From: a virus
Lineage: Duplodnaviria; Heunggongvirae; Uroviricota; Caudoviricetes
Strand: one strand, 5' to 3'
DNA: 64,000 nt
Virus record (IMG/VR): IMGVR_UViG_2651869695_000003
Shown: positions 1 to 29,567 of the stretch, piece by piece
Layout of the letters: each line of letters begins with the position of its first letter
Numbering within the stretch: position 1 is the first letter of the stretch
Notes under the pieces: generated by a model
Database searches by the model: none
Told to the model about the DNA's origin: nothing
The model's input: only the letters and a program-made list of their open reading frames with translations
Translations under genes and position numbers: made by a program

Positions 1-566
1 GCTGGGTGTTGTCTGTTGTGCGTCGGGATCTCGGTTTTGATGATAGTCACGTTGTGACAATACCGGAACTGTGCTGGTGGCTGATTCGTAATGACCTGGC
101 GGATGCCTTACCGGAAAGTGCAGCCCGTAAGGCACTGAGATTACCGAAGCCTGTTGTGCAGGCGGTCACCCGGGAAAGTGACCTTGTGCCTTCGGTTCCT
201 GCCACCAGCATTATCCAGGATAAAGCGAAAAAGGTGCTGGCGCTGAAAGTGGATCCGGAGTCGCTGGAGTCTTTTATGTTACGCCCAAAACGCCGCCGCT
301 GGGTTAATGAAAAGTACACGCGCTGGGTTAAGACACAGCCGTGTGCATGTTGTGGAAAGCCTGCTGATGATCCCCACCACCTGATAGGTCACGGTCAGGG
401 TGGAATGGGTACAAAAGCGCATGACCTCTTTGTGTTGCCTTTGTGCAGAAAGCATCACGACGAGCTGCATGCGGATACCGTGGCATTTGAAGAGAAGTAT
501 GGCTCCCAACTGGAGCTGATATTTCGTTTTATCGATCGCGCGCTGGCGATTGGGGTGTTGGCCTGA
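1..566 (+). CDS. DUF968-like protein with Cys/His-rich HNH-like motif, 5'-truncated by window edge
   Basis: C-terminal 186 aa of the 331-aa protein encoded in full at 46150..47145; motif CACCGKPADDPHHLIGHG...CRKHHDELH; sits just upstream of Q. Confidence 0.5.
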   Translation, partial: WVLSVVRRDLGFDDSHVVTIPELCWWLIRNDLADALPESAARKALRLPKPVVQAVTRESDLVPSVPATSIIQDKAKKVLALKVDPESLESFMLRPKRRRWVNEKYTRWVKTQPCACCGKPADDPHHLIGHGQGGMGTKAHDLFVLPLCRKHHDELHADTVAFEEKYGSQLELIFRFIDRALAIGVLA

Positions 567-583
567 TTTGGTGGAGAAAGTTG

Positions 584-949
584 ATGCGTGATATTCAGAT
601 GGTTCTGGAGCGTTGGGGAGCATGGGCGGCGAGTGATAGTTCTGGAGTAGACTATTCGCCTATAGCTGCTGGGTTTAAGGGGCTTCTTCCCTACACAAGC
701 AAAACACGTCAGGCTTGTTCAGATAGTGATGCATTAATTATTGAAGGTTGTCTTGCTCGTCTAAAGCAAAAAAAGCCAGATGAGCACTCGCTGCTTGTGG
801 CACATTATTTATACAGAATATCCAAGCGTAAGATTGCAAAGGTGCGTGGAAAGGATGAAAAATTGGTACGCATAGAAATACAACTAGCCGAAGGATTTAT
901 TGATGGTTGCCTTTCAATGTTGGATTTTAACCTTGAAATGGACGCTTAG
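584..949 (+). CDS. Antitermination protein Q (lambdoid late-gene regulator)
   Basis: N-terminus MRDIQMVLERWGAWAA recalled as Q-family signature; position between nin-like genes and the lysis cassette; ATG at 584 preferred over track start 581. Confidence 0.6.
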   Translation: MRDIQMVLERWGAWAASDSSGVDYSPIAAGFKGLLPYTSKTRQACSDSDALIIEGCLARLKQKKPDEHSLLVAHYLYRISKRKIAKVRGKDEKLVRIEIQLAEGFIDGCLSMLDFNLEMDA

Positions 950-984
950 GGTTGCACAGGTTGGCCCCATATGAGGCCAACCTG

Positions 985-1446
985 TCACAAGTGGGGGAAG
1001 ATTTTTCGTAACACTAACCAACACCTTCCGAAGGTATATAGCGAAATTATAAGGGAGGATAAGCCTAACAGTATGAACAGGAAATCAATAGGTTTGCCCG
1101 CAACAATAACATCATCAGGTAGAAACATCGCTATCAATGGAAATATACATGCGACGATGAGAGTTAACCCTGTTGAAAGTAATCTATTTACCAGAGTTGG
1201 TAACACGTTGTTTTGCTTAAGGGCATTAATTGCTCCTTCCTTATCGCTGTTTGCACTACTAAATATAGATATTGCAGCCAGAACAAAACCAAACAGGATG
1301 CCTGATATAGTCGAGAGCACCCCCGCTGTTGTGAGTACGTCAGCATGCTTCATCGGTTTAAACAGTTTTGTCGCTGCATAGGTCAACAGAATCCAGAGGA
1401 CGCATTTCCAGAGAAAAGTGGCTAATTCTCTCATTGTGTCCTCCAT
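985..1446 (-). CDS. Small integral membrane protein (about 4 predicted TM helices), candidate RexB-like partner
   Basis: 153 aa with four hydrophobic stretches; low-GC; immediately downstream of the 313-aa ORF on the same strand, opposite to phage late genes. Confidence 0.45.
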   Translation of the reverse strand: MEDTMRELATFLWKCVLWILLTYAATKLFKPMKHADVLTTAGVLSTISGILFGFVLAAISIFSSANSDKEGAINALKQNNVLPTLVNRLLSTGLTLIVACIFPLIAMFLPDDVIVAGKPIDFLFILLGLSSLIISLYTFGRCWLVLRKIFPHL

Positions 1447-1455
1447 GCTTGGTTA

Positions 1456-2397
1456 TTAGTCTCTGCTAGCGAGCTCATACTGTGCAAGATAGTTCGCGTT
1501 ATCAATTTTAGCAGATATCATCGCCGTTCTGATATCAGAATCGGATGGATAACCGCTTTTGACAATGATTGTCTTTGTACTGACCAATACTTGGTCAAGT
1601 AGACTTTTGGGCGTTCTATTGGATGGCTCTGTTACATCAATTTTTTTAATTTTTAGACCTCCAGAACCTTTTGGAAAAAGTTCAAGTAGTTCCTTAATAG
1701 CATCGGTGACAGAAGTTTTTAGATAGTTAAACCCTTGTTTTTTCGGGCGAATCCGACCTCGCATATTTAATCTTAGATGCGACCCGCCCATACCAACAAC
1801 CATGTCAATAATTTCATTAGCTAAAGGGTTTTTAATCTTATAATTAGCTTTGTTAAAGTTTCTTGGAGCAGCAACTATAAGATCGAAACTACGTAGGATA
1901 TTTCCGTCCTCAAGCAGTTCCTTCATGCTCTCTTGTTTCCAAATGGCTTCAAAAGTGACGCTTTTTAAATCAGTTTTGTTATACAAAATGAATGCCAGAT
2001 CATTTACTTTGGGCCCTATATGGTTGAGGGTCATAGCTAATAAGTCCGTTTCGTAGTAATAGATAAAATATGTTCTTTCAACTACAGAATCTTTATCATT
2101 TAAAGGAATTGTTCTCTCACTACCTGTAGCATCCTCGATGAACGGTAGTAGGCATTCCCTTCTCCACGATACGTAACCAAAGTAACATTGCAGTGTGGTA
2201 TCTTTTTGAAGAATAACTAACTTTAACCCTCGACTTGGGGTGTCTGTTGTGTAAGTTATTGGAAAAGTTACAGTATCTGCTGTGGTCATTTGCTCAAAGG
2301 CTAGTTTTGCAGCAGATGTGCCATATTTTTTGCTTCCATTACCAGTGAAAAAACCAACTCTCACTCGCCTGGTTTTATTCTTATTTTCTGTACTCAT
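1456..2397 (-). CDS. Hypothetical 313-aa protein, candidate RexA-like abortive-infection component
   Basis: Low-GC ORF in moron position between Q and holin; soluble protein followed by 4-TM protein mimics rexA-rexB architecture; similarity to RexA is by eye only. Confidence 0.4.
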   Translation of the reverse strand: MSTENKNKTRRVRVGFFTGNGSKKYGTSAAKLAFEQMTTADTVTFPITYTTDTPSRGLKLVILQKDTTLQCYFGYVSWRRECLLPFIEDATGSERTIPLNDKDSVVERTYFIYYYETDLLAMTLNHIGPKVNDLAFILYNKTDLKSVTFEAIWKQESMKELLEDGNILRSFDLIVAAPRNFNKANYKIKNPLANEIIDMVVGMGGSHLRLNMRGRIRPKKQGFNYLKTSVTDAIKELLELFPKGSGGLKIKKIDVTEPSNRTPKSLLDQVLVSTKTIIVKSGYPSDSDIRTAMISAKIDNANYLAQYELASRD

Positions 2398-2520
2398 TAT
2401 CGATCCGAAATAATTTTAGCAACCGTGTGAAAAATACAACAAAAAAAAGAGGAAATCATTAGCGCGGTCCGCAAAAAACATTGTAATCTGTTAAGAGTGG
2501 TTACTTCGCCACACAGCTTA

Positions 2521-2550
2521 AACCCGCCGTCGAGCGGGTTTTGTCGTTTC
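2521..2550 (+). terminator. Rho-independent terminator-like hairpin, candidate tR' of the late leader
   Basis: AACCCGC-cgtcga-GCGGGTT followed by TTGTCGTTTC, about 145 bp upstream of the holin start. Confidence 0.35.
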
Positions 2551-2693
2551 TGTGGCTGGGGATTCGTTGGTCCTGGCCTATTCCGCAGTTCTCCATCGGT
2601 TCGGCTTCTTTGATGTTTCCGCTTCTGATTTGCGGTACATGATGTTCCCTCAATTTGCACCTGCTGTATCAGCGAGGTGAGAGATAACTACAA

Positions 2694-3020
2694 ATGCCTC
2701 ATAACCCAAATACCTGGCTGGAGTTGGTCCAGAGCTGGTGGCGTGGAGACACACCGCTGGGCGCAGTGATTATGTCGATCGTTATGGCTGGCTTGCGCAT
2801 TGCCTATTTTGGCGGTGGTGGTGGCTGGAAACGAAAAACGCTCGAGATTTTGCTCTGTGGTGCTCTGACGCTGACTTTTGCATCCGCTCTTGAGTATGTC
2901 GGATGGCCTAAATCTCTTTCTGTTGCCATTGGTGGCGGCGTTGGGCTGATCGGGGTCGATGCTATTCGTGGGGCTGCAATGAGAGTAATCGGTAATAAGT
3001 TTGGTGGCTCTAAGGAGTAA
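2694..3020 (+). CDS. Holin
   Basis: 108 aa, hydrophobic segments, first gene of lysis cassette directly before the R-like endolysin. Confidence 0.7.
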   Translation: MPHNPNTWLELVQSWWRGDTPLGAVIMSIVMAGLRIAYFGGGGGWKRKTLEILLCGALTLTFASALEYVGWPKSLSVAIGGGVGLIGVDAIRGAAMRVIGNKFGGSKE

Positions 3021-3023
3021 TTT

Positions 3024-3506
3024 ATGCAGGTACTAAATTCCCAGCGTAAAGCTTTCCTCGATATGGTGGCATGGTCAGAAGGAACGGATAACGGGCGACA
3101 ACCGACACGTAACCACGGTTATGACGTTATTGTCGGAGGTGAACTGTTCACTGATTACTCCGATCACCCTCGCAAACTTGTCACGCTAAACCCGAAACTT
3201 AAATCAACAGCCGCAGGACGTTATCAGCTTCTTTCACGCTGGTGGGATGCTTACCGTAAGCAGCTTGGGCTGAAAGACTTCTCTCCAAAAAGCCAGGATG
3301 CTGTGGCATTGCAGCAGATTAAAGAGCGTGGTGCTTTACCGATGATTGATCGCGGCGATATCCGTCAGGCTATTGATCGTTGCAGCAATATCTGGGCGTC
3401 ATTGCCGGGCGCTGGTTATGGTCAGTTCGAACATAAGGTTGACAGCCTGATTGAAAAATTCAAAGAATCGGGCGGAACGGTCAGAGAAATTCAGCTATAT
3501 GAGTAG
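3024..3506 (+). CDS. R: Endolysin, lambda R-like lytic transglycosylase
   Basis: Near-identical over long stretches to lambda R as recalled ([92 protein letters not shown]). Confidence 0.85.
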
Positions 3507-3963
3507 AGTAACTGCGATTCTGTCCTCTCTGGTTATCTGCACCATCGTCTGCCTATCATGGGCTGTTAATCATTATCGTGATAACGCCATCGCCTACAAA
3601 GAACAGCGCGATAAAGCGAAGGAAAAACTCAGCCAGGCGAACGCCACCATTACTGAGATGCAGCAGCGCCAGCGTGATGTTTCTGCGCTCGATGCGAAAT
3701 ACACCGGAGAACTTGCAAATGCTAAAGCAACTATTGAACAGCTTCAGCGTGATGTTGCTGTTGGCACTAAGCGGCTGTTCCTCGCCGCTAGTTGCCCGAG
3801 AGTGCAATCAACGACCATTACCACCAGCCTGGATGATGCTACCGCCCCCCGACTTACTGACACCGCTCAACGGGATTATTTCACCCTCAGAGAGAGAATT
3901 GAAATCAGTTATAAACAGATAAGAGCATTGCAGGACTATATCTCTAGTCAGTGTGAAAAATAA
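3499..3963 (+). CDS. Rz: Rz i-spanin
   Basis: [31 protein letters not shown] matches lambda Rz N-terminus; start moved to internal Met overlapping R stop. Confidence 0.85.
3719..3922 (+). CDS. Rz1: Rz1 o-spanin lipoprotein, embedded in +1 frame of Rz
   Basis: Signal/lipobox LLLALSGC followed by proline-rich [26 protein letters not shown] as in lambda Rz1. Confidence 0.7.
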
Positions 3964-4044
3964 AATTGCTTTCGATGTATGGATCTGGACATCTTTTTTT
4001 TCTACTATGCTGACTGAGAATTGAAACGTATATGGATATTCTAT

Positions 4045-4803
4045 ATGAAAAGAAAAAAATTAGAAGGTCCCGGGTGTGAATCATATGAAGGGTTAGATGT
4101 TGAATATTATATTGATTCCGAAACGGGGGAATTTAAAGCGGTTTATACATTCAATAATGAAATTGTAGATCGCATAAAATTGAGTGGGCGTATTGCCGAT
4201 AGAGCATCTTCACTGTCCCTAATTCATAGGGACTTAAAAAGTGCTAAAGAGTGGTACCAAATAGCTAATGAACTGGCAGGGAGAAACGAATTAAGGACAG
4301 ATGGCAAGTTATACGGGAATATACTTGATCTAGATTTATCAAGTGAAATTAGAGCGTTATTTGTGGCAAGCCTAACGTTTTATGGTAAAGCTTTCTCTGA
4401 AGCTAAAGGGAGAAAGTTAAAGATGGAGCGTGATTGGCTTGATTCTGAATATTTTGGGTTGCATGACTGTATTATTAACTACAGGCATAATTTTGCAGCA
4501 CATAGCGGCAACCAAGACTATGAGTCAGCAGAAACTTCATTGTTACTAATAAGGAAAAATGGGAAAACATTTTATCAAGCAGTGACAGATAGAAAACAAC
4601 TGAGCATGATTGGTGTCGAGGACGAGCATGTTGATATGATTAATTTATTTGAACATGCGATACAGGTTGTTGAGAAAAAATATAATGAAACATTAGAGAG
4701 AATTAGAACCTATGTCATGCAAAAGAGTTATTCTTTTTGGTGTTTAGCTGCCACAGGGAAAGATCCCGTCAATTTAGATAAGTTAAATAAGAAGAAAAAA
4801 TAA
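4045..4803 (+). CDS. Hypothetical protein, AT-rich moron (candidate abortive-infection or defence gene)
   Basis: Low GC compared with flanking phage genes; followed by a candidate terminator (4840..4869); lies between Rz and HNH/terS; contains YRHNFAAH (R-x5-H). Confidence 0.5.
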   Translation: MKRKKLEGPGCESYEGLDVEYYIDSETGEFKAVYTFNNEIVDRIKLSGRIADRASSLSLIHRDLKSAKEWYQIANELAGRNELRTDGKLYGNILDLDLSSEIRALFVASLTFYGKAFSEAKGRKLKMERDWLDSEYFGLHDCIINYRHNFAAHSGNQDYESAETSLLLIRKNGKTFYQAVTDRKQLSMIGVEDEHVDMINLFEHAIQVVEKKYNETLERIRTYVMQKSYSFWCLAATGKDPVNLDKLNKKKK

Positions 4804-4839
4804 ACCTACTCTTCACATTAGTAACATTAGTAGATGCTA

Positions 4840-4869
4840 AGCCACTAGCAATCGATGGTGGCTTTTTTA
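4840..4869 (+). terminator. Rho-independent terminator after moron gene
   Basis: AGCCAC-loop-GTGGCT followed by TTTTTTATT. Confidence 0.5.
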
Positions 4870-4882
4870 TTGGAGCTTACCA

Positions 4883-5233
4883 ATGCCACCACGAACCCCA
4901 AAAGCCTGCCGTGTTCGCGGCTGCCGCTCTACAACCACAGACCCGTCAGGCTACTGCGAAAGCCACAAAAGCGAAGGCTGGAAGCAATACAAGCCAGGTC
5001 AGTCCCGTCATCAGCGCGGTTATGGTTCGAAGTGGGACGCTATCCGCGCGCGTGTGCTGAAGCGTGACAAAGGTTTATGTCAGTTATGTCTGCGTGCCGG
5101 TGTGGTGCGTGAGGCGAAAACCGTTGACCACATCATCCCTAAAGCGCATGGCGGCACTGATGCCGACTGTAATCTGCAGAGTCTGTGTTGGCCGTGTCAT
5201 AAGGCGAAGACGGCCCGTGAACGGTTAAAGTGA
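4883..5233 (+). CDS. HNH endonuclease (terminase-associated)
   Basis: Cys/His motifs CRVRGC...C and DHIIPKAHGG...CWPCH; directly upstream of cos-like region and terS as in HK97-like phages. Confidence 0.8.
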   Translation: MPPRTPKACRVRGCRSTTTDPSGYCESHKSEGWKQYKPGQSRHQRGYGSKWDAIRARVLKRDKGLCQLCLRAGVVREAKTVDHIIPKAHGGTDADCNLQSLCWPCHKAKTARERLK

Positions 5234-5239
5234 TAATAA

Positions 5240-5340
5240 CTCTCAACTGTCTGAGGGGAGGGGCGGGTCACATCCCTGTGACCTGACGTCTTCCGGACTG
5301 CCCGCCCCATCGTTTTTTTATACCCGCGAAAAATGAAATT
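5240..5340. other. Candidate cos / packaging site region
   Basis: GC-rich dyad GGGGCGGG...CCCGCCCC enclosing palindrome GTCACAtcccTGTGAC between HNH and terS. Confidence 0.3.
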
Positions 5341-5358
5341 TAACCAGGAGTGCCGCAT

Positions 5359-5853
5359 ATGGCTGGAACGACGGGGCGTTCCGGGCGTCGCCCCAAGCCA
5401 ACGGCGCGCAAGGCGCTGGCCGGAAATCCCGGCAAGCGAGCCCTGAACAAAGATGAACCTGTTTTTACGCCCATCAAAGGTGTTGAGCCACCGGAGTGGT
5501 TCGCTGAAGAAGATCTCCCTCTCGCCACGATCATGTGGCAACTGACAACCAAAGAACTCTGCGGTCAGGGCCTGCTGTGCGTGACTGACCTCGCGGTGCT
5601 TGAGCGGTGGTGCGTGGCCTACGAGTTCTGGCGACGTGCCGTGAAAAATATTGCCAGACAGGGCAACACCATCACCGGTGCAATGGGCGGTATGGTCAAA
5701 AATCCGGAGCTGACCGCCAAAAAAGAACAGGAGTCCGAGATGAGCAGTACGGGGGCAATGCTCGGACTCGACCCCAGCAGCCGCCAGCGTCTGATTGGCC
5801 TGGCGGGGAAGAAGAAAGCCACTAACCCGTTTCTGAAAATCATCGAATCATGA
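5359..5853 (+). CDS. Terminase small subunit
   Basis: Basic N-terminus, immediately upstream of and overlapping terL; ATG at 5359 with GGAG upstream. Confidence 0.7.
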
Positions 5854-7583
5854 GCCGGAAATCTTACCCCAACGTAAATGCTGCCAATCAGTATGCCCGG
5901 GATGTCGTGCGCGGAAAGATTGTGGCCTGCCAGTTTGTGATTCAGGCCTGCCAGCGCCATCTTGATGACCTGATGGCGGAAAAAAGTAAGTCGTTTCGTT
6001 ACCGCTTCGACAAGGACCTGGCTGAACGGGCCGCCAAATTTATTCAGCTGTTGCCGCACACCAAGGGTGAGTGGGCATTCAAGAGGATGCCCATCACGCT
6101 GGAGCCGTGGCAGCTCTTTGTGATCTGCTGCGCGTTTGGCTGGGTCAATAAAGGCTCCCGGCTGCGCCGCTTCAGGGAGGTGTATACCGAAATCCCCCGT
6201 AAGAACGGCAAATCGGCAATCTCTGCCGGTGTCGCTCTGTATTGTTTTGCCTGTGATAACGAGTTCGGCGCGGAAGTGTATTCCGGTGCCACGACGGAGA
6301 AACAGGCATGGGAAGTCTTTCGCCCGGCGCGACTGATGTGTAAACGCACACCAATGCTGACGGAAGCGTTCGGGATTGAGGTTAACGCCTCAAACATGAA
6401 CCGTCCGGAGGATGGCGCGCGGTTTGAACCGCTGATCGGTAACCCCGGTGATGGTTCATCACCCCACTGTGCGGTGGTGGATGAATATCACGAGCACGCC
6501 ACCGATGCGCTTTACACCACGATGCTTACCGGGATGGGGGCGCGACGTCAGCCACTGATGTGGGCCATTACTACTGCCGGGTACAACATTGAGGGGCCGT
6601 GCTACGACAAGCGGCGGGAAGTTATCGAGATGCTCAACGGGTCGGTGCCTAACGATGAACTGTTCGGGATCATCTATACCGTTGATGAAGGTGACGACTG
6701 GACCGACCCGCAGGTGCTGGAAAAAGCCAATCCAAATATTGGCGTGTCGGTTTATCGCGAATTTTTGTTAAGTCAGCAACAGCGTGCGAAAAATAACGCC
6801 CGTCTGGCAAACGTCTTTAAAACAAAACACCTCAATATCTGGGTGTCGGCGCGTTCGGCGTATTTCAACCTGGTGAGCTGGCAGAGCTGCGAGGATAAAT
6901 CACTGACCCTTGAGCAGTTCGAGGGGCAGCCGTGCATTCTGGCCTTTGACTTGGCGCGTAAACTGGATATGAACAGCATGGCGCGACTTTATACCCGCGA
7001 GATTGACGGTAAAACGCATTACTACAGTGTGGCCCCGCGTTTCTGGGTACCGTATGACACGGTGTACAGCGTCGAGAAAAATGAAGATCGACGGACAGCC
7101 GAACGCTTTCAGAAATGGGTGGAAATGGGCGTTCTGACCGTTACCGATGGTGCGGAAGTGGATTATCGCTACATCCTCGAGGAGGCCAAAGCGGCGAACA
7201 AAATCAGCCCGGTCAGTGAGTCACCCATCGACCCCTTCGGGGCGACCGGGCTGTCACATGACCTTGCTGATGAAGACCTGAACCCCATCACTATCATTCA
7301 GAACTACACCAACATGTCCGATCCGATGAAAGAGCTGGAAGCGGCAATTGAATCGGGGCGCTTTCATCATGATGGCAATCCCATCATGACCTGGTGTATC
7401 GGCAACGTGGTCGGCAAAACCATTCCGGGTAACGATGATGTGGTGAAGCCCGTCAAAGAGCAGGCGGAAAACAAAATCGATGGTGCAGTTGCGCTGATTA
7501 TGGCGGTTGGCAGAGCCATGCTGTACGAGAAAGAAGACACGCTGTCTGACCACATTGAGTCCTATGGGATCCGCTCGCTTTAA
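5850..7583 (+). CDS. Terminase large subunit
   Basis: 577 aa; ATPase-like motifs (RKNGKS, VVDEYHE) and nuclease domain; canonical position. Confidence 0.9.
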
Positions 7584-7594
7584 CTGAGGTAATT

Positions 7595-7777
7595 ATGATC
7601 ATGCTGATTCTCGCGCCTCTGGTGGGCGTGCTGGGGGCGCTTTTGCTGGCGTATGGTGCCTGGCTGATTTATCCCCCGGCGGGGTTTGTTGTTGCCGGGG
7701 CGTTGTGTCTGTTCTGGTCGTGGCTGGTGGCGCGATATCTCGACCGTACACAGTCGTCTGTCGGCGGAGGTAAATAG
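7595..7777 (+). CDS. Small hydrophobic protein
   Basis: 60 aa, two hydrophobic segments, between terL and portal. Confidence 0.4.
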
Positions 7778-9018
7778 TGTTCTTTTCGGGATTATTTCAA
7801 CGAAAAAGTGACGCACCAGTGACCACGCCAGCAGAGCTGGCGGATGCTATCGGGTTGTCCTACGACACCTATATCGGAAAGCAGATCAGCAGCCAGCGGG
7901 CCATGCGACTGACGGCGGTTTTTTCCTGCGTCAGGGTGCTGGCAGAGTCGGTCGGGATGTTGCCCTGCAATCTGTATCACCTGAACGGCAGCCTGAAAAA
8001 GAGAGCCACCGGCGAGCGTCTGCATAAGCTGATCTCCACGCATCCCAATGGCTATATGACGCCGCAGGAGTTCTGGGAGCTGGTGGTCACCTGTCTGTGC
8101 TTGCGGGGAAACTTTTACGCCTACAAAGTGAAAGGATTTGGCGAAGTGGCTGAACTGCTGCCCGTCGATCCCGGCTGTGTGGTACCGAAGCTTAACAGTA
8201 GCTGGGAGCCGGTCTATCAGGTCACATTCCCGGACGGCTCCACGGATGTACTGAGCCAGGAAGATATCTGGCATGTGCGCACGCTGACGCTGGACGGTCT
8301 GGTGGGACTGAATCCCATCGCCTATGCCCGCGAGGCAATATCGCTGGCAGCTGCGACCGAAGAGCACGGGGCCAGACTGTTCAGCAATGGTGCGGTGACG
8401 TCCGGTGTGTTGCGTACAGAGCAGACGCTGTCGGATCAGGCTTATGAGCGCCTGAAGAAAGATTTTGAGGAGCGTCACACCGGGCTTGGCAATGCTCACC
8501 GCCCGATGATCCTTGAGATGGGGCTGGACTGGAAGTCGATGGCGCTGAACGCCGAGGACAGCCAGTTCCTGGAAACCCGCAAGTTTCAGCTTGAAGAAAT
8601 CTGTCGTCTGTTCCGGGTGCCATTGCACATGGTGCAGAACACCGATCGCGCCACCTTCAACAATATCGAAGAGCTGGGGCTGGGATTTATCAACTATTCA
8701 CTGGTGCCGTATCTGACCCGCATTGAGCAGCGGATCAACACCGGACTGGTACGAAAAAGTAAGCAGGGCGTTTATTACGCCAAATTTAACGCCGGGGCGT
8801 TACTGCGCGGGGATATGAAGTCCCGTTTTGAAGCCTACGCCACCGGTATCAACTGGGGAATTTACTCTCCCAATGACTGCCGCGACCTGGAAGATATGAA
8901 TCCGCGTCCCGGTGGGGATGTCTATCTCACGCCGATGAATATGACCACGAAACCCTCCGATGGCAGTAAAGCCGGTAAGCAGAAGGATAACGCCAATGCA
9001 GACGAAACAACGTCTTGA
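7777..9018 (+). CDS. Portal protein (HK97 family)
   Basis: 413 aa; follows terminase; GTG start overlapping previous stop. Confidence 0.85.
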   Translation: MFFSGLFQRKSDAPVTTPAELADAIGLSYDTYIGKQISSQRAMRLTAVFSCVRVLAESVGMLPCNLYHLNGSLKKRATGERLHKLISTHPNGYMTPQEFWELVVTCLCLRGNFYAYKVKGFGEVAELLPVDPGCVVPKLNSSWEPVYQVTFPDGSTDVLSQEDIWHVRTLTLDGLVGLNPIAYAREAISLAAATEEHGARLFSNGAVTSGVLRTEQTLSDQAYERLKKDFEERHTGLGNAHRPMILEMGLDWKSMALNAEDSQFLETRKFQLEEICRLFRVPLHMVQNTDRATFNNIEELGLGFINYSLVPYLTRIEQRINTGLVRKSKQGVYYAKFNAGALLRGDMKSRFEAYATGINWGIYSPNDCRDLEDMNPRPGGDVYLTPMNMTTKPSDGSKAGKQKDNANADETTS

Positions 9019-9646
9019 TGTACCGCTGAGTCTGAAATCTGTCAGTGACTCCGGTGAGTTTGAAGGGTATGGCTCCGTCTTTGGTGTAAAGGACAGCCAC
9101 GATGATGTGGTGATGTCCGGGGCATTTGCTGCTTCCCTGCGGGCGTGGAGTGACAGAAAAGCGTTACCTGCGCTGCTCTGGCAGCACCGCATGGATGAGC
9201 CCATCGGTGTTTACACCGAAATGAAGGAAGACGATGTCGGGCTTTACGTCAGGGGGCGATTGCTCATTGATGATGATCCCCTGGCAAAACGCGCACATGC
9301 ACACATGAAGGCCGGTTCGTTAACCGGCCTTTCTATTGGGTACGTCCTGAAGGACTGGGAATACGACCGGACGAAAGAAGCCTTTCTGCTGAAAGAAATC
9401 GACCTCTGGGAAGTCAGTCTGGTGACGTTCCCGTCTAACGACGAGGCACGGATCAGCGACGTCAAGAACGCGCTGGCTCGCGGGGAAATCCCCGAACAGA
9501 AAAAAATCGAAAGAGTCCTGCGTGATGTCGGACTCTCCCGTACCCAGGCCAAAGCATTCATGGCCGGGGGCTATAGCGCACTGTCCCTGCGCGACGCTGA
9601 GGATGTGAGCTCTGCACTGAATGCACTGAAAAATCTGAACTTCTAA
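8996..9646 (+). CDS. Prohead (head maturation) protease
   Basis: Between portal and major capsid protein; start set to internal Met with AAGGA upstream. Confidence 0.75.
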   Translation: MQTKQRLDVPLSLKSVSDSGEFEGYGSVFGVKDSHDDVVMSGAFAASLRAWSDRKALPALLWQHRMDEPIGVYTEMKEDDVGLYVRGRLLIDDDPLAKRAHAHMKAGSLTGLSIGYVLKDWEYDRTKEAFLLKEIDLWEVSLVTFPSNDEARISDVKNALARGEIPEQKKIERVLRDVGLSRTQAKAFMAGGYSALSLRDAEDVSSALNALKNLNF

Positions 9647-9660
9647 TCAGGAGAAATACG

Positions 9661-10866
9661 ATGGCGGTAGATATTAAAGATGTCGAACAGGTCGCGCAGG
9701 AGCTGCAGCAGAAGTTTGACGACTTCAAAGCAAAGAACGACAAGCGCGTGGATGCGATTGAGCAGGAAAAAGGCAAGCTTGCCGGACAGGTGGAAACCCT
9801 GAACGGGAAACTCAGCGAGCTGGAAAATCTCAAAAGCGACCTTGAAAAAGAGCTGCTTGAGCTGAAACGTCCGGCAGGTGGATCGCAAAATAAACTGGCC
9901 ACCGAGCATAAAGAGGCGTTTGTGGGCTTCCTGCGTAAAGGCCGTGAAGACGGTCTGCGCGATCTGGAGCGTAAGGCATTGCAGGTGGGCACCGATGAAG
10001 ACGGTGGCTACGCCGTGCCGGAAGAACTGGATCGCAACATTCTTAACCTGCTGAAAGATGAAGTGGTGATGCGTCAGGAAGCCACGGTGATCACCGTTGG
10101 CGGTTCCGACTACAAAAAACTGGTGAATCTGGGCGGTACGGCTTCCGGATGGGTGGGGGAAACGGATACGCGATCCCAGACTGCCACCTCCAGACTGGAG
10201 CTGATTGAACCTCTCATGGGGGAAATCTACGGCAACCCGCAGGCTACCCAGAAAATGCTGGACGATGCCTTCTTCAACGTGGAGGCCTGGATCAACAGCG
10301 AGCTGGCGACCGAATTTGCCGAACAGGAAGAAATTGCCTTTACCACCGGCGATGGTACCAAGAAGCCAAAAGGGTTCCTGGCGTATGAATCTACTGATGA
10401 AACCGATAAGATCCGGGCGTTCGGCAAACTTCAGCATATTGTATCCGGCGAAGCGACCGCGGTGACCGCAGACGCCATTATCAAACTGATTTACACGCTG
10501 CGTAAGGCACACCGCACTGGCGCGAAGTTCATGATGAACAACAACAGCCTGTTTGCCATCCGTCTGCTGAAAGACACCGAGGGTAACTATCTGTGGCGTC
10601 CGGGGCTGGAACTGGGGCAGCCGTCCTCTCTGGCGGGTTACGGTATCGCTGAAAACGAACAGATGCCGGATATCGCCGCTGATGCGAAAGCCATTGCATT
10701 TGGTAACTTCAAACGGGGTTACACCATCGTTGACCGTATCGGCACCCGCATTCTGCGTGACCCGTACACCAATAAACCGTTTGTCGGTTTTTATACCACC
10801 AAGCGCACCGGCGGGATGCTGGTCGATTCGCAGGCCATCAAACTGCTGAAGATTGCAGCGGCGTAA
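9661..10866 (+). CDS. Major capsid protein (HK97 fold) with N-terminal coiled-coil delta domain
   Basis: 401 aa; coiled-coil N-terminus then capsid core; follows protease. Confidence 0.85.
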   Translation: MAVDIKDVEQVAQELQQKFDDFKAKNDKRVDAIEQEKGKLAGQVETLNGKLSELENLKSDLEKELLELKRPAGGSQNKLATEHKEAFVGFLRKGREDGLRDLERKALQVGTDEDGGYAVPEELDRNILNLLKDEVVMRQEATVITVGGSDYKKLVNLGGTASGWVGETDTRSQTATSRLELIEPLMGEIYGNPQATQKMLDDAFFNVEAWINSELATEFAEQEEIAFTTGDGTKKPKGFLAYESTDETDKIRAFGKLQHIVSGEATAVTADAIIKLIYTLRKAHRTGAKFMMNNNSLFAIRLLKDTEGNYLWRPGLELGQPSSLAGYGIAENEQMPDIAADAKAIAFGNFKRGYTIVDRIGTRILRDPYTNKPFVGFYTTKRTGGMLVDSQAIKLLKIAAA

Positions 10867-10873
10867 TCACTCA

Positions 10874-10894
10874 GGGGCGCGGAACCGCGCCCCC
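10874..10894 (+). terminator. GC-rich hairpin after capsid gene
   Basis: GGGGCGCGG-aa-CCGCGCCCC; no strong T-tract, so likely a stabilising or partial terminator. Confidence 0.3.
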
Positions 10895-10915
10895 TGTTCT
10901 GACGGGTGAAGAATC

Positions 10916-11116
10916 ATGATCCTGAAACAAGATCTGAAATGGTCACCGGACGGTATGCGTGTTGAGGTCATTCGGGCCGGTGAGTATGACGACGGGGCGC
11001 TTCCTGCCCGGGTGCAGGAGATTGCACTTCAGGCCGGGTTAGCAGAGCGCGGAATCAGTGCAAAAAGCAGTAAAGCGGCAAAAGAGAAAAAAGCCACGAC
11101 CAGTAAAGAGGGCTGA
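10916..11116 (+). CDS. Hypothetical small protein
   Basis: 66-aa ORF between capsid and head-tail connector genes. Confidence 0.35.
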   Translation: MILKQDLKWSPDGMRVEVIRAGEYDDGALPARVQEIALQAGLAERGISAKSSKAAKEKKATTSKEG

Positions 11117-11118
11117 GT

Positions 11119-11442
11119 ATGCTTCTGACAATGGAAGAGATTAAAGCCCAACTCCGGCTGGATGAGGATTTCGATGCTGATGACCGCCATCTGCAACTGC
11201 TGGCCTGTGCGGCACAAAAGCGGACGGAAACGTATCTGAACCGGAAGCTCTATGCACCGGATGAAACCATTCCGGACAGCGATCCGGACGGGCTGCACCT
11301 GCCGGATGATATTCGTCTGGGGATGCTGATGCTTATCAGCCATTTTTACGAAAACCGCTCGTCGGTTACGGAAGTGGAGAAACTCGACATGCCGCAGAGT
11401 TTTGGCTGGCTTGTCGGCCCGTACAGGTACTTTCCGCAATGA
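11119..11442 (+). CDS. Head-tail connector (gp6-like)
   Basis: 107 aa, position after capsid, overlapping stop-start with next gene. Confidence 0.55.
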   Translation: MLLTMEEIKAQLRLDEDFDADDRHLQLLACAAQKRTETYLNRKLYAPDETIPDSDPDGLHLPDDIRLGMLMLISHFYENRSSVTEVEKLDMPQSFGWLVGPYRYFPQ

Positions 11443-11849
11443 AAATTCGTCAGGCGCAGACCAGCGCAACCTACATTCTGCCGGACCCCGGTGAACTGAA
11501 TAAACGCGTCCTGATCCGCCAGCGGGTGGATATGCCCGCGGATAACTTTGGCGTGGAGCCTCAATACCCGGTTACGTTCCGGACATGGGCGAAGGTTATC
11601 CAGACCAGTGCCACCACCTGGCAGGAAACCGCGCAGACCGGGGACGCCATCACCCATTACATCACCATTCGTTACCGCCGGGGGATCACCGCTGATTATG
11701 AGGTGGTCTGCGGTGACAGTGTGTACCGGGTGAAACGTCAGCGCGATCTGAACGGGGCGCGGCGCTTTCTGCTGCTGGAGTGTACGGAGCTGGGCGAATG
11801 TGGGCAGAGTCACGGAGGCAACAATGACGACTTCCTTTTTGCACGTTGA
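11439..11849 (+). CDS. Head closure / head-tail adaptor protein
   Basis: 136 aa, synteny. Confidence 0.5.
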   Translation: MKIRQAQTSATYILPDPGELNKRVLIRQRVDMPADNFGVEPQYPVTFRTWAKVIQTSATTWQETAQTGDAITHYITIRYRRGITADYEVVCGDSVYRVKRQRDLNGARRFLLLECTELGECGQSHGGNNDDFLFAR

Positions 11850-12330
11850 TTTTCAGCAGCCCGCGGAGATGCGCTTTAACCGCGCCCGTGTCCGGCGGGC
11901 GTTTGTCACGATTGGTCAGCGTCATATGCGTGATGCCCGTCGGCTGGTGATGCGCCGTGCGCGGTCGGCACCGGGTGAAAACCCCGGTTATCAGACCGGA
12001 CGCCTGGCTCGTTCGATTGGTTACATGGTACCCAGAGCCAGTAAACATCGCCCTGGTTTTATGGCACGTATAGCCCCTAACCAGCGTAATGGAGAGGGAA
12101 ACCGCCGTATCACCGGTGATTTTTATCCGGCTTTTTTGTTCTATGGCGTGAGGCGAGGGGCAAAGCGTCGTCGCAGCCATCATCGTGGTGCATCCGGTGG
12201 CAGCGGCTGGCGACTGGCTCCACGTAATAACTTCATGGTGGAAACGCTTGAAAAGAACCGCAGCTGGACACGCTATTTTCTGGCGCGGGAATTGCGTAAA
12301 TCACTGAAGCCGGAGCGACGACACAGATGA
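11824..12330 (+). CDS. HK97 gp10-like tail-component protein
   Basis: Synteny; ATG with GGAGG upstream. Confidence 0.5.
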   Translation: MTTSFLHVDFQQPAEMRFNRARVRRAFVTIGQRHMRDARRLVMRRARSAPGENPGYQTGRLARSIGYMVPRASKHRPGFMARIAPNQRNGEGNRRITGDFYPAFLFYGVRRGAKRRRSHHRGASGGSGWRLAPRNNFMVETLEKNRSWTRYFLARELRKSLKPERRHR

Positions 12331-12887
12331 AACTGACGCCTGTTATTGCTGCACTGCGTGCCCGCTGTCCATATTTTGAAAACCGGGTTGCAGGCGCGGC
12401 CCAGTTCAAAAATCTGCCGGAGGTCGGAAAGCTGAAACTCCCGGCGGCATATGTTGTACCGGGTGATGATTCTCCGGGAGAAAACAAAAGCCAGACCGAC
12501 TACTGGCAGGAGCTGAAAGAGGGCTTCTCCGTGGTTGTCATACTGAGTAACGGGCGTGATGAGCGCGGTCAGTTTGCTTCGTATGATGTGGTGGACGATG
12601 TCCGGCAGATGCTCTTTAAGGCCCTGCTGGGCTGGAACCCGGAAGCGTGCGGTAACCCGATTAACTATGACGGCGGCACGCTGCTGGATCTGAATCGTCA
12701 TGAGCTGATTTATCAGTTCGATTTTTCGATCATCAGCGAGCTGACCGAAGACGATACCCGCCAGCAGGATGACCTGAACAGTCTGGATGAACTGCGAACG
12801 CTGGCGATTGATGTTGATTATCTCGATCCCGGTAACGGGCCTGACGGCGATATCGAACATCACACCGAAATAACCCTTCCTTCCTGA
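12327..12887 (+). CDS. Tail protein (Mu gp37-like, possible tail terminator)
   Basis: 186 aa directly upstream of sheath gene. Confidence 0.4.
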   Translation: MKLTPVIAALRARCPYFENRVAGAAQFKNLPEVGKLKLPAAYVVPGDDSPGENKSQTDYWQELKEGFSVVVILSNGRDERGQFASYDVVDDVRQMLFKALLGWNPEACGNPINYDGGTLLDLNRHELIYQFDFSIISELTEDDTRQQDDLNSLDELRTLAIDVDYLDPGNGPDGDIEHHTEITLPS

Positions 12888-13049
12888 GAATCTTCATGTT
12901 TGTGAAACCTGTTAAAGGGCGGTCAGTGCCTGACCCTGCCCGCGGTGACCTTTTGCCCGCCGAAGGGCGAAATGTTGACGAGAACAACTACTGGCTGCGC
13001 CGTGAAGCAGCGGGTGATATCCGGCGCGTGAATAAAAAGGTGAACACCG

Positions 13050-14546
13050 ATGACGATAAGCTTTAACACCATTCCGTCGAATACGCTGGTTCCGCTGTTT
13101 TATGCGGAAATGGATAACCAGGCGGCGAATACTGCACAGGACAACGGAGCATCGCTGCTGATTGGTCATGCCAATAACGGTGCAGAGATTGTTGCCAACA
13201 GTCTGGTGCTGATGCCGTCGGCAGACTATGCACGCCAGATTTGTGGTGCGGGAAGTCAGCTGGCGCGTATGGTCGAGGCTTATCGCCAGACCGACCCGTT
13301 TGGTGAGCTGTATGTGATTGCCGTTCCGGAAGCCACAGGCGCGGCGGCAACGGTTACGCTGACGGTGACCGGGGAAGCAACCGAAAGCGGCACGGTGAAT
13401 GTCTATGTGGGACGTACCCGCGTGCAGGCTCCGGTGACCAACGGCGATAACGTCACGACGATTGCCAGCAGTATCAAAGATGCCATCAATGCCGTTCCGA
13501 CTCTGCCGTTTACAGCTTCATCTTCGGCTGGCGTGGTCACACTGACCGCGCGTCATAAGGGGCTTTGCGGGAATGAAATTCCTGTCAGCCTCAATTACTA
13601 CGGCTTCGGTGGGGGCGAAGTGCTGCCAGCGGGCGTACAGATTGCCGTGGCGACGGGGAACGCCGGAACGGGCGCTCCTGTTCTCACCGGCGCGGTGGCT
13701 GCAATGGCGGATGAGCCGTTTGATTATATCGGCCTGCCGTTCAACGACACGGCCTCCGTTAACACGCTGGTGACCGAGATGAACGATACCAGCGGTCGCT
13801 GGAGCTATGCGCGTCAGCTGTATGGTCATGTGTATACGGCAAAGATCGGCACGCTGTCAGAACTGGTGACCGCAGGTGACCAGTTTAACCAGCAGCACAT
13901 TACCCTAGCGGGGTACGAAAAAGACACCCAGACGCCTGCCGACGAGCTGGCGGCAAGCCGTACCGCCCGCGCAGCGGTGTTTATCCGCAACGATCCGGCA
14001 CGTCCCACGCAGACCGGTGAGCTGGTGGGTATGCTGCCTGCGCCGAAGGGGAAACGGTTCACGATGACCGAGCAGCAGACCCTGCTGTCTCATGGCGTGG
14101 CAACGGCGTATGTCGAAAGCGGGGTGCTGCGCATTCAGCGTGATGTCACCACGTACAGGAAAAATGCTTACGGGGTTGCGGATAACAGCTACCTCGACAG
14201 CGAGACGCTGCATACCAGTGCGTATGTACTGCGCAAACTGAAATCCGTCATTACCAGTAAGTACGGGCGTCACAAGCTTGCCAGCGACGGTACCCGCTTT
14301 GGTCCCGGTCAGGCGATTGTCACCCCGGCGGTAATCAAAGGGGAACTGCTGGCAACCTACCGTCAGCTTGAGCGTGCGGGGATCGTGGAAAACTACGAAC
14401 TGTTTAAGCAGTACCTGGTTGTGGAGCGTGATGCCAGCGATCCGAACCGCCTGAACACGCTGTTCCCGCCTGACTATGTTAACCAGTTGCGTGTTTTTGC
14501 CGTGGTTAACCAGTTCCGTCTTCAGTATTCAGAGGAGTCTGCATAA
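13050..14546 (+). CDS. Contractile tail sheath protein
   Basis: 498 aa, followed by tube, chaperone with frameshift, and tape measure. Confidence 0.75.
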   Translation: MTISFNTIPSNTLVPLFYAEMDNQAANTAQDNGASLLIGHANNGAEIVANSLVLMPSADYARQICGAGSQLARMVEAYRQTDPFGELYVIAVPEATGAAATVTLTVTGEATESGTVNVYVGRTRVQAPVTNGDNVTTIASSIKDAINAVPTLPFTASSSAGVVTLTARHKGLCGNEIPVSLNYYGFGGGEVLPAGVQIAVATGNAGTGAPVLTGAVAAMADEPFDYIGLPFNDTASVNTLVTEMNDTSGRWSYARQLYGHVYTAKIGTLSELVTAGDQFNQQHITLAGYEKDTQTPADELAASRTARAAVFIRNDPARPTQTGELVGMLPAPKGKRFTMTEQQTLLSHGVATAYVESGVLRIQRDVTTYRKNAYGVADNSYLDSETLHTSAYVLRKLKSVITSKYGRHKLASDGTRFGPGQAIVTPAVIKGELLATYRQLERAGIVENYELFKQYLVVERDASDPNRLNTLFPPDYVNQLRVFAVVNQFRLQYSEESA

Positions 14547-14902
14547 TGGCCCGTATCGGGGGAACCTGTTATTTCAAAATTGACGGTCAGCAGCTATCGC
14601 TGACCGGCGGCATTGAGGTGCCCATGAACAGGACGGTCAATGATGACATCATCGGCCTGGACGGTTCAGTGGACCGCAAGGAAACTCACCGTGCGCCTTA
14701 TGTCAAAGGGACCTTCAAGGTGCCGAAGAATTTTCCGGTGAGCAAAATCACCTCGTCTGATGAGATGACCATCACTGCCGAGCTGGCGAACGGTCAGGTC
14801 TATGTATTGTCGTCCGCCTGGCTGCACGGAGAAGCGAACCATAATGCCGAAGAAGGCACGGTTGATCTTGAGTTCCACGGTGAAGAAGGGGATTACCAGT
14901 AA
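14546..14902 (+). CDS. Tail tube protein
   Basis: 118 aa directly after sheath. Confidence 0.65.
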   Translation: MARIGGTCYFKIDGQQLSLTGGIEVPMNRTVNDDIIGLDGSVDRKETHRAPYVKGTFKVPKNFPVSKITSSDEMTITAELANGQVYVLSSAWLHGEANHNAEEGTVDLEFHGEEGDYQ

Positions 14903-15171
14903 TGAAAGAGCTTGAGTTAAAGAAACCGATTATCGCTCATGGTGAGACACTCTCCGTACTGGAGTTTGATGAACCCACCGGGAAGGATGTCCGCGAGCTG
15001 GGGTATCCCTACCAGATGAATCAGGATGAGTCCGTCAGACTTCTGGCGCATGTGGTGTCGAAATACATTGTGCGGCTGGCGAAAGTGCCGCAAAGCTCTG
15101 TCGACCAGATGTCTCCGGCAGACCTGAATGCAGCGGCGTGGCTTGTGGCTGGTTTTTTCCTCCAGGCCTGA
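14902..15171 (+). CDS. Tail assembly chaperone (extended to 15320 by -1 frameshift)
   Basis: 89-aa ORF overlapped by a -1 frame ORF (15138..15320) that runs into the tape measure start. Confidence 0.6.
   Translation: MKELELKKPIIAHGETLSVLEFDEPTGKDVRELGYPYQMNQDESVRLLAHVVSKYIVRLAKVPQSSVDQMSPADLNAAAWLVAGFFLQA
15153..15159 (+). other. Slippery heptamer T_TTT_TTC for -1 programmed frameshift
   Basis: Zero-frame codons GGT TTT TTC near end of chaperone ORF; -1 frame stays open to 15320. Confidence 0.5.
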
Positions 15172-15312
15172 CGGCTGAATACCTCACTGATCGCTTCTTT
15201 GACTGCGCCAGTTACTGGCGCATTAATCCCTTCGAATTGCTGAATATGCCGATCAGTGAAATTCCCTTGCTGGTCAGTCAGGCAAACAGGATAGAGCAGG
15301 AGAAACGCACAC

Positions 15313-17148: not shown

Positions 17149-17208
17149 TGAAAAATTAATCTGTTAATGAGTCCCACTCCGGTGGGATTTTTTATGTACG
17201 GAGTTTAT

Positions 17209-22206: not shown

Positions 22207-22209
22207 TCC

Positions 22210-24506: not shown

Positions 24507-24509
24507 GGA

Positions 24510-29507: not shown

Positions 29508-29567
29508 ATAAACTCCGTACATAAAAAATCCCACCGGAGTGGGACTCATTAACAGATTAATTTTTCA

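Follow-up and report, generated by a model that had tools for sequence, protein, structure and literature searches.

In lambdoid lysogens, short RNAs running from the late promoter pR′ to the terminator tR′ are the rule (PMC7547250), and the Q paradigm describes Q, qut/pR′ and tR′ as a linked module (bioRxiv 10.1101/651190). The toxin genes stx1 and stx2 are accessory cargo in the interval between Q and the lysis genes; they follow tR′ in sense orientation and are expressed by Q-antiterminated transcription from pR′ (PMC7547250). The porin genes nmpC (DLP12, E. coli K-12) and lc (PA-2) occupy the same interval in another layout: a QuuD-family Q gene, an accessory gene on the reverse strand whose Q side bears a hairpin, a conserved block, and the holin gene. 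Both encode outer-membrane porins (lysogenic conversion), nmpC being interrupted by IS5 in K-12. Fixed positions at which alternative defence-like cargos are swapped between conserved flanks are found in P2-like phages and P4-like satellites, which are described as defence hotspots (Rousset et al. 2022, PMC9122126).

The locus analysed here lies in a 64,000-nt stretch of DNA of a virus of the Caudoviricetes (IMG/VR record IMGVR_UViG_2651869695_000003; hereafter, the window). It has the same layout as the nmpC and lc loci, and the core of their block matches the window with one mismatch in 39 nt; its cargo differs, being a pair of genes, one for a cytoplasmic and one for a membrane protein. In contrast to stx, the cargo lies upstream of the proposed pR′, is antisense, and is probably expressed from its own promoter. 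nmpC in DLP12 and lc in PA-2 are true precedents for this locus and stx is not; the arrangement is of a known kind, is not a disruption of late-gene control, and overturns no model of that control. We consider it likely that ~950..2452 is a self-contained antisense moron carrying a RexAB-type pair, located between the Q stop codon and a pR′-leader-tR′ block that would operate by Q-dependent readthrough.

Gene order from Q to the lysis genes

The window contains the following features, in order:

6..566, plus strand: 3′ part of the DUF968/HNH-like gene preceding Q (PF06147, E=6e-80), its reading frame truncated by the left window edge
581..949, plus strand: Q antiterminator, 122 aa, Q21/Q933W/QuuD family (PF06530, E=4e-51, full-length match; phrog_79)
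955..983, both strands: hairpin between the convergent Q and cassette, a strong inverted repeat filling the 35-bp gap
985..1446, minus strand: gene B, small membrane protein, 153 aa, RexB-like architecture with four long helices (phrog_8552; hydrophobic segments)
1456..2397, minus strand: gene A, 313-aa soluble protein, probable DUF6731 family, RexA-like fold
2413..2442, minus strand: candidate cassette promoter, TTGTTG, 18 bp, TGCTAAAAT (extended −10; reverse complement of 2413..2421), read by eye
about 2453..2550, plus strand: conserved block, ~95 bp, ending in a terminator hairpin
2694..3020, plus strand: holin S, lambda-type (PF05106)
3024..3506, plus strand: lysozyme (phrog_90 endolysin)
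3451..3963, plus strand: Rz (PF03245)

The full-length PF06530 match identifies a recognised Q-family protein, of the family that comprises Q21 and Q933W (naming from bioRxiv 10.1101/651190), and the protein also matches, weakly, the solved structure of Q21 (6P18, E=0.002). The DUF968/HNH-like gene is annotated at full length in the locus L095. The original prediction had placed the end of Q at 949, a reverse-strand cassette at 985..2397, and a plus-strand terminator-like hairpin upstream of the holin. All three placements are borne out: the PF06530 reading frame ends at 949, the cassette comprises two minus-strand reading frames (985..1446 and 1456..2397), and the hairpin (2520..2550) ends 144 bp before the holin start at 2694.

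The repeat at 955..983 folds with a dG of −21.4 kcal/mol on the plus strand and −27.1 kcal/mol on the minus strand (z = −4.1 and −6.1, respectively), and has no U-tract on either strand. It probably forms the 3′ end of the cassette, as a hairpin or terminator, and probably insulates it from Q. An equivalent hairpin lies directly after the Q stop in most other cargo types, mostly with A- and T-run flanks, and these hairpins look like bidirectional terminators. With the candidate promoter at the opposite end of the cassette, the leader ahead of the ATG at 2397 would be very short; a similar TGCTAAATT is present upstream of a divergent homologous cassette in phage cdtI, and the candidate was not listed by a consensus promoter scan. 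Judging from these motifs, the cassette probably has its own promoter.

The window contains a perfect inverted repeat of 22.5 kb (1..22514 versus the reverse complement of 24202..46715, zero mismatches), and the whole feature is therefore present twice. The repeat may be a real duplication or an assembly artefact. The second copy is as follows:

43696..46135: second copy of the feature, base-identical and inverted (x -> 46716-x; open-reading-frame symmetry, zero mismatches)
43696..44022, minus strand: holin
about 44166..44263, minus strand: conserved block
44319..45260, plus strand: gene A
45270..45731, plus strand: gene B
45767..46135, minus strand: Q

The conserved block and its terminator hairpin

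The block between the cassette and the holin can be divided into the following elements, all on the plus strand:

2453..2519: proposed pR′ and early leader, conserved across cargo types
2464..2472: palindrome GCGGTCCGC, part of the proposed pR′ block
2484..2489: −10-like hexamer TAATCT, part of the proposed pR′ block
2489..2497: TGTTAAGAG, overlapping TAATCT, a second conserved −10-like motif
2497..2512: leader hairpin 1, GUGGU/GCCAC, paired in 100% of alignment cells, with one compensatory change
2520..2550: proposed tR′, an 8-bp GC-rich stem (2520..2541) with a 6-nt loop, then UUUUGUCGUUUC

The core of the block is GTTAAGAGTGG, and the order of elements is an A-tract, CGCGGTCCGC, a TAnnnT hexamer with A2 and T6 invariant in 35 of 35 variants, GTTAAGAGTGGTTACTTCGCCACACAGC, and the terminator hairpin. 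A terminator scan reported the 8-bp stem at 2520..2541 followed by TGTCGTTTCT, and RNAfold returned the same hairpin. Terminator-like sites are not significantly enriched in that scan (5 sites versus 2.4 +/- 1.6 expected from shuffles), as would be the case if the hairpin were a functionless chance inverted repeat. However, the hairpin is near-invariant across related phages with divergent flanks (35 distinct variants), its stem is paired in 97% of alignment cells with two compensatory changes and several wobble changes, and a T-run always comes next. It is this conservation, and not the scan, that identifies the hairpin as real, and it contradicts an origin by chance, which we regard as hardly credible. 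The covariation and the position ahead of the holin mark the hairpin as an intrinsic terminator placed after the proposed promoter and before the late genes.

The late promoter was assigned from comparative data and reading by eye. Two overlapping −10-like motifs, either of which might serve as the −10 or as the pause element of a sigma-70 promoter, are conserved, and a −35 element is absent. Promoter prediction, which had been suggested as a check on the original prediction, gave no support, in that the consensus scan of 500..3100 listed no promoter anywhere on the plus strand. We infer from the conserved motifs that the block consists of pR′, leader and tR′, with putative promoter elements and a putative start site.

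It is unlikely that the late promoter instead lies downstream of the hairpin (2551..2693), with the block serving as a terminator or insulator for early pR/Q transcription or as a small-RNA gene. Such a position would be consistent with the lack of a clear −35 in the block and with the conservation of 2543..2693 in SfII, SfIV, and many E. coli prophages having the same holin. Against it, the consensus scan found no promoter-like site in the segment; the segment is replaced by unrelated sequence in cdtI, L014, L031 and other loci, while Q and the block stay together; and Q specificity requires a linked qut site. A terminator for the Q transcript would, in addition, be unneeded in cargo-bearing phages, in which a terminator-like hairpin is already present between Q and the block. 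An Rfam scan of 900..2800 at E<=10 yielded chance-level matches only, with no small-RNA match, so that the block corresponds to no known RNA family. StxS was considered and rejected as an identity for the block, StxS being a 258-nt transcript that accompanies a 144-aa Q and the Rfam small-RNA match being absent.

The E. coli and cdtI matches stop exactly at 2542, with at least two unrelated downstream modules beyond. The late segment beyond the terminator thus varies, and the homology break falls exactly at the terminator end, which fits Q, qut/pR′ and tR′ travelling as a single specificity module.

With the block as pR′-leader-tR′, pR′ would be constitutive in the lysogen, and its transcripts, some 45-55 nt long, would end at the 2520..2550 hairpin. 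Once the prophage is induced, Q produced from the early rightward transcript would modify RNA polymerase at the block, and the Q-modified polymerase would pass the hairpin and continue into S-R-Rz and the structural genes. The proposal resembles lambda 6S RNA and StxS, each of which combines a constitutive late promoter with a close intrinsic terminator overridden by Q. The predicted RNA is much shorter than lambda 6S RNA (194 nt) and StxS (258 nt) and is unrelated in sequence. Literature searches with the core sequence, with DUF6731, or with quuD and "late promoter" found no paper, and entries near essD or nmpC are absent from the supplements of E. coli K-12 3′-end datasets. A published comparison of Stx phage pR′ regions does not define the elements for this Q type (PMC6266700).

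Antisense cargo between Q and the block

We surveyed the same slot in about 90 related loci, comprising 15 empty loci (PhiR49_2, Stx2 phage 1720a-02, and 13 IMG/VR loci) and about 73 cargo-bearing loci. In the 15 cargo-less loci the conserved block starts 28-47 bp past the Q stop, and in all cargo-bearing loci it is found immediately after the cargo. In the window the block is intact, to the right of the cargo and 1.5 kb from the Q stop; a late promoter directly downstream of Q is thus seen only in the cargo-less relatives. Since the block of the cargo-less loci is intact beyond it, the cargo was inserted between the Q stop and the proposed late promoter, upstream of pR′. This comparison with cassette-less relatives, likewise suggested at the outset, identifies the cargo as an insertion, and the absence of the extra genes from the same site in close relatives (15 versus about 73 loci with the same flanks) agrees with its being a moron; the features that could serve as its own promoter and terminator are the by-eye extended −10 candidate and the strong hairpin at 955..983, which lacks a U-tract. 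The original prediction that cargo had been inserted into the late regulatory region is upheld in that the genes are accessory, lie between Q and a plausible tR′, and are absent from close relatives, but not as regards the late unit, which is uninterrupted, with its block intact.

If pR′/qut lay right after Q (950..985), the cassette would be inside the pR′-tR′ leader, and late transcripts would need to run through 1.5 kb of antisense cargo before tR′. The late promoter is indeed located just after Q in lambda and in the cargo-less relatives. In the window, however, the gap between the stop codons of Q and gene B is only 35 bp and is filled by the hairpin; the promoter scan lists no promoter-like site there; and the sequence found next to Q in the cargo-less relatives sits at 2453..2550, not at 950. 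We therefore judge this position to be very improbable. With pR′ in the block, the cargo would occupy a recombination slot exactly between the stop of a Q21/QuuD-family Q and the block, and would remain outside the late transcript; late transcripts would start downstream of the cargo and never cross it. In the lysogen, the cassette's own promoter would drive leftward transcription, pointing away from the lysis genes.

The junctions are shared by unrelated cargos, the left one falling in the last Q codons and the right one in the A-tract of the block. The slot holds at least 12 unrelated cargo families, in antisense orientation in all of the approximately 73 cargo-bearing loci, and most of these cargos end in a hairpin after Q. 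Occupants include the porins mentioned above and PADLOC candidates, namely PDC-S20/KAP NTPase, PDC-M53AB, a PDC-M68A-like HNH, PDC-S42, and TIR-TM. As in the P2-like and P4-like hotspots, position is fixed and cargo is exchanged between conserved flanks. The phage group and the flanks (here the Q stop and the pR′ block) are different, and the strict antisense orientation and the Q-side hairpin are particular to this slot. The slot is not described in the papers on prophage hotspots that we examined, and may be described elsewhere.

Some Stx phages share the Q family and the block. In L005, L093 and L094, stx lies downstream of the conserved block, and in two of these, the Stx1a and Stx2a phages L093 and L094, slot cargo is present as well, on the other side of the block. 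The stx-like placement originally proposed did not hold up: the cargo in the window lies upstream of the block and is antisense, and is not late-operon cargo of the Stx type, which is downstream of tR′, in sense orientation, and transcribed from pR′.

For this large Q family, the late promoter and terminator can be located by the ~95-bp block and not by distance from Q. Late expression should not be assumed for genes between Q and the block, a point relevant to Stx phages with cargo on either side. Candidate defence genes could also be collected by using the slot, which runs from the Q stop to GTTAAGAGTGGTTAC, as a simple address in the genome.

The DUF6731 gene pair

The gene A protein of the window has no Pfam match at E<=0.01, and 17 of 28 aligned homologues (41-85% identity) match DUF6731 (PF20505; best E=1e-11). 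Gene A is similar in fold to RexA, the soluble component of RexAB (RexA/RdgC fold), and gene B supplies a small four-transmembrane partner directly downstream. With such a fold, A would be predicted to form a dimeric clamp. Gene B starts ~10-20 bp past the gene A stop and encodes 149 aa if translated from an internal ATG (start 1434), the start used by homologues and RefSeq. Its AF2 model (pLDDT 81) has four helices of 27-31 residues each, and its best BFVD match is a 165-aa protein of Mycobacterium phage Sbash (probability 0.99, E=0.03), a phage that carries the Rex-like gp30/gp31 system. The top BFVD matches of A and B include one pair from a single uncultured phage.

Sequence comparisons with known Rex proteins were negative. 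Pfam, NCBIfam and PADLOC gave no informative match for either cassette protein, and none to the Rex models of Pfam or PADLOC, placing the pair outside the RexA and RexB sequence families; PHROGs returned families of unknown function only. hhalign to lambda RexA and RexB gave probabilities <1%, gene B has no sequence similarity to lambda RexB, and single-sequence and PDB profile searches of gene A against solved structures gave no matches. A Foldseek search of gene A against BFVD returned uncharacterised phage proteins only, and lambda RexA was not among them. More broadly, the Rex-type pairs (lambda RexAB, Sbash gp30/31, CarolAnn gp44/43, and P. putida RexABpp) have no detectable sequence similarity to the window pair, and the Pfam family is different, the RexA family being DUF4747 (PMC6426596). 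RexAB adjoins the cI repressor gene, whereas the window pair sits between Q and the proposed pR′.

By analogy with these systems, the A-B pair is most likely a RexAB-type abortive-infection or exclusion pair, in which a sensor would activate a membrane effector and protect the lysogen from other phages. That the cassette is not anti-phage, and serves in lysogenic conversion, in a membrane function, or in tuning the phage's own switch between lysis and lysogeny, seems to us a lesser but appreciable prospect. The porins among the other slot occupants and the lack of a PADLOC match would be consistent with such a role, and lambda RexA biases the switch toward lysis independently of RexB (PMC11077077). 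On the other side, the pair matches experimentally validated Rex-type exclusion pairs in its two-gene layout, its RexA-like fold and its four-helix membrane partner, and most slot neighbours match defence candidates. The DUF6731 pair is a testable new RexAB-type candidate.

Somewhat short of an even chance, in our estimation, is a broader proposal. The Q stop-pR′ junction of Q21/QuuD lambdoids may be a dedicated, orientation-constrained hotspot (with at least 12-15 cargos that replace one another, invariably antisense, the majority with a hairpin beside Q, and several matching defence candidates), and the DUF6731 protein with its four-helix partner may represent an unrecognised, widespread enterobacterial branch of RexAB-type systems. 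Antisense orientation might have been selected because it prevents constitutive transcripts of the cargo from entering the lysis genes, and if the hairpin leaks, a possibility here given that it has no U-tract, antisense cargo transcripts might also damp Q, like paQ in lambda.

The cassettes of SfII and SfIV show no pairwise sequence similarity to the pair in the window. Prophages of Yersinia, Serratia and other enterobacteria conserve the A-B pair beside Q, and the DUF6731 pair is present in 73 of 5426 complete E. coli genomes (~1%) and in several other enterobacterial genera.

The late region and its two copies

A lambdoid prophage with an e14/SfV-like morphogenesis module has its late region at the left end of the window, where the following features lie.

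6–566: DUF968/HNH-like gene, cut by the window edge
581–949: Q antiterminator, 122 aa (PF06530, E = 4e-51)
985–1446, reverse strand: gene B
1456–2397, reverse strand: gene A
between gene A and the holin gene: non-coding stretch of 296 bp
2497–2512: leader hairpin GUGGU/GCCAC, 5′ of the terminator hairpin at 2520–2541
2694–3020: lambda-type holin, followed, in order, by lysozyme, Rz, a 260-aa ORF of unknown function, an HNH gene, and terminase
4021–4803, plus strand: the 260-aa ORF, between the Rz and HNH/terminase genes (phrog_8440)

ORF, domain, and terminator scans and RNAfold confirm all coordinates of the original prediction for Q, the A–B cassette, the hairpin, and the holin. In particular, the terminator scan and RNAfold return the same hairpin, with a GC-rich, 8-bp stem at 2520–2541 followed by TGTCGTTTCT. 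A very strong inverted repeat at 955–983, absent from that prediction, fills the 35-bp gap between Q and gene B (minus-strand dG −27 kcal/mol, z = −6). The 260-aa ORF, which has no match in Pfam, NCBIfam, or PADLOC, occupies another classical moron position, directly 5′ of the packaging module.

Positions 1–22514 and 24202–46715 form a perfect, 22.5-kb inverted repeat with zero mismatches (x maps to 46716−x) that covers the whole late region, and the entire feature is therefore present twice in the window. The repeat centre (22515–24201), 1.7 kb of unique sequence, falls in the tail-fibre region. E. coli LD22-1 has a near-identical prophage that is single-copy and carries the Pin invertase gene (pinE) beside its tail-fibre genes, at the site of the repeat centre. 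It is thus a serious possibility that the assembly folded back at the invertible segment; the repeat may alternatively be a real inverted duplication.

A conserved block 5′ of the late genes

A megablast search of phage genomes reveals a mosaic: SfII, SfIV, and cdtI have the Q gene and the hairpin surroundings in common, and the insert between differs in each. For cdtI and many E. coli prophages, homology ends at exactly window position 2542, i.e. at the hairpin end. Alignment of the sequences 5′ of the late genes defines a block comprising an A-rich stretch, followed by TTAGCGCGGTCCGC, followed by ~17 variable bases closing with TAnnnT, followed by an invariant GTTAAGAGTGGTTACTTCGCCACACAGC, followed by the terminator hairpin. 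In the window, the block is located at ~2453–2550, to the right of the cassette. In relatives having no insert (PhiR49_2, Stx2 phage 1720a-02, and 13 IMG/VR contigs), 28–47 bp separate the start of the block from the Q stop codon, and one insert-less group even has the block overlapping the Q end; a position directly after Q is the classical pR′/qut place in Q-dependent regulatory cassettes (bioRxiv 10.1101/651190). In E. coli K-12 prophage DLP12, the block lies between nmpC and essD, and in phage PA-2 it adjoins lc, with 1 mismatch in the 39-nt core.

At least two unrelated modules follow the terminator (window 2543–2693 compared with L003, L014, L031, and other loci): in one, as in the window, a lambda-type holin comes next; in the other (TTGTACCTGTAAAC...), a small ORF, a DNA methyltransferase, and a different holin come next. 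The modules change over no more than a few bases from where the hairpin ends, which suggests that the terminator serves as a recombination boundary.

Position, linkage to Q, and conservation lead us to infer that the block is a pR′–leader–tR′ unit with a predicted promoter. Among 35 distinct block variants, the hexamer directly 5′ of GTTAAGAG has invariant A2 and T6, T at position 1 in all but one group, and variation at the middle three positions; in a −10 element, the two invariant bases are the key ones. The hexamer is overlapped by a second −10-like motif, TGnTAAGAG (2489–2497). The block contains no −35 match at 16–18-bp spacing, and a consensus scan of 500–3100 returns no plus-strand promoter. 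No start-site data were found for the DLP12 copy; the supplements of a K-12 3′-end dataset have no entry near essD or nmpC.

In an alignment of 23 sequences, the stem cells of the leader and terminator hairpins form standard pairs in 97% of cases, versus 41–56% with partners slid, and the two hairpins together show two compensatory double changes and several G–U intermediates. Because the element is highly conserved, this covariation is modest, and we count it as supportive only. The loop and T-tract are free to vary, and a T-tract is present in every variant.

A GC palindrome at 2464–2472, roughly −33 to −24 relative to the proposed start, reads GCGGTCCGC in most phages, GCGTACGC in SfII, and ACGTACGT in DLP12 and PA-2. 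Its sequence thus changes with dyad symmetry kept (window versus the aligned position in L001, L006, and L007), and phages with an altered palindrome (SfII, DLP12, and PA-2) have more divergent Q proteins. The palindrome could be a protein-binding, perhaps Q-binding, element inside the proposed late promoter; the Q21 element, however, is a direct repeat.

Antisense cargo in the Q–block interval

In each of 80 IMG/VR loci having this Q, we mapped the block and the Q stop codon. The interval between them is cargo-less in 15 loci and cargo-bearing in all remaining loci with enough sequence (~73, reference phages included). All cargo ORFs run antisense to Q and the late genes, and at least 12 unrelated cargo families are represented.

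Cargo found between Q and the block
KAP-family NTPase (PADLOC PDC-S20, PifA-like)
DUF6731 plus membrane-protein pair, in three divergent versions
HNH protein (PDC-M68A-like)
PDC-S42 set, three genes
SDH-type protease
TIR-TM protein
PDC-M53A/B, in SfII
356-aa plus 108-aa pair, in SfIV, with IS1 inserted
339-aa protein, family unknown
porins nmpC and lc

The Q/pR′ junction thus behaves as an orientation-constrained hotspot for cargo and defence genes, a result of moderate interest. The antisense rule would make sense because, in a lysogen, rightward transcription from a constitutively expressed insert would drive expression of the lysis genes. In nearly every cargo, a GC-rich hairpin lies directly past the Q stop codon, in most cases with the A-run and T-run flanks of a bidirectional terminator; the window hairpin at 955–983 is stronger than most of its counterparts, yet has no U-tract. 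Insertion sequences also land here: SfIV has an IS1-type transposase pair (L002 729–1428), and K-12 nmpC is interrupted by IS5 (DLP12, L006 2092–3286).

In the original prediction, the cassette appeared to have been inserted into the late regulatory region, as stx is in Stx phages, but in antisense. This reading is supported in part: Q and tR′ do flank the cassette, but the block is to its right, and the cargo is upstream of the proposed late promoter, outside the late transcription unit. In contrast, stx is transcribed from pR′ through tR′ (PMC7547250), and in 1720a-02, which has the same Q family and block, stx2 is downstream of the block. Phages Stx1_14040 and Stx2a_WGPS2 have both arrangements: antisense cargo separates Q from the block, and sense stx lies downstream of the block. 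Their uncharacterised antisense cargos comprise three genes of 350, 130, and 220 aa (L093 333–2440, Stx1a) and two genes of 343 and 179 aa (L094 883–2446, Stx2a), with no significant PADLOC match. For the cargo position, the fitting precedent is not stx but nmpC/lc, descriptions of which date back to the 1980s. A moron lying between Q and the lysis genes is an arrangement already known; the one in the window is nmpC-like by position and RexAB-like by content.

The A–B pair

Shortly before the gene A start, the minus strand has TTGTTG-18 bp-TGCTAAAAT (reverse complement of 2413–2442), a plausible extended −10 promoter for the cassette as judged from sequence; a similar TGCTAAATT is present 5′ of the cdtI homologue. 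The cassette and late promoters would be back to back, ~70 bp apart, and cassette transcription would proceed toward Q and be halted, fully or partly, by the 955–983 hairpin.

Gene A (313 aa) itself has no match in Pfam, NCBIfam, or PADLOC. Its homologues (41–85% identity) occur in Escherichia, Citrobacter, Serratia, Yersinia, Xenorhabdus, and others, and 17 of 28 match PF20505 (DUF6731). In Yersinia prophages, the A–B pair is likewise antisense and adjoins a PF06530 Q. The model of gene B (149–153 aa) has four long helices (pLDDT 81). Among viral models, it is matched best by a 165-aa mycobacteriophage Sbash protein (probability 0.99, E = 0.03), not necessarily gp31; gp30 and gp31 of Sbash form a Rex-like defence pair. 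The second-best match of gene B and the best BFVD match of gene A come from the same uncultured phage, indicating that the pair is linked there too.

The A–B pair resembles rexA–rexB in sizes and in gene order, with a soluble protein followed by a small, four-helix membrane protein. We infer a defence function, and the DUF6731 pair is a candidate RexAB-type system of moderate interest; the pair may instead act in the switch of the phage itself, or at the membrane in a capacity other than defence. Of 5426 complete E. coli genomes, 73 carry the cassette at ≥80% coverage, nearly always as a single chromosomal copy.

Further two-gene antisense cargos downstream of Q occur in L077/L078 (340 aa and 149 aa) and L074 (356 aa and 170 aa). 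These loci, SfII (PDC-M53A/B), and SfIV have a common layout, with a soluble ~340-aa protein first and a small protein second, and several sequence-unrelated occupants may share a sensor-plus-membrane-effector design.
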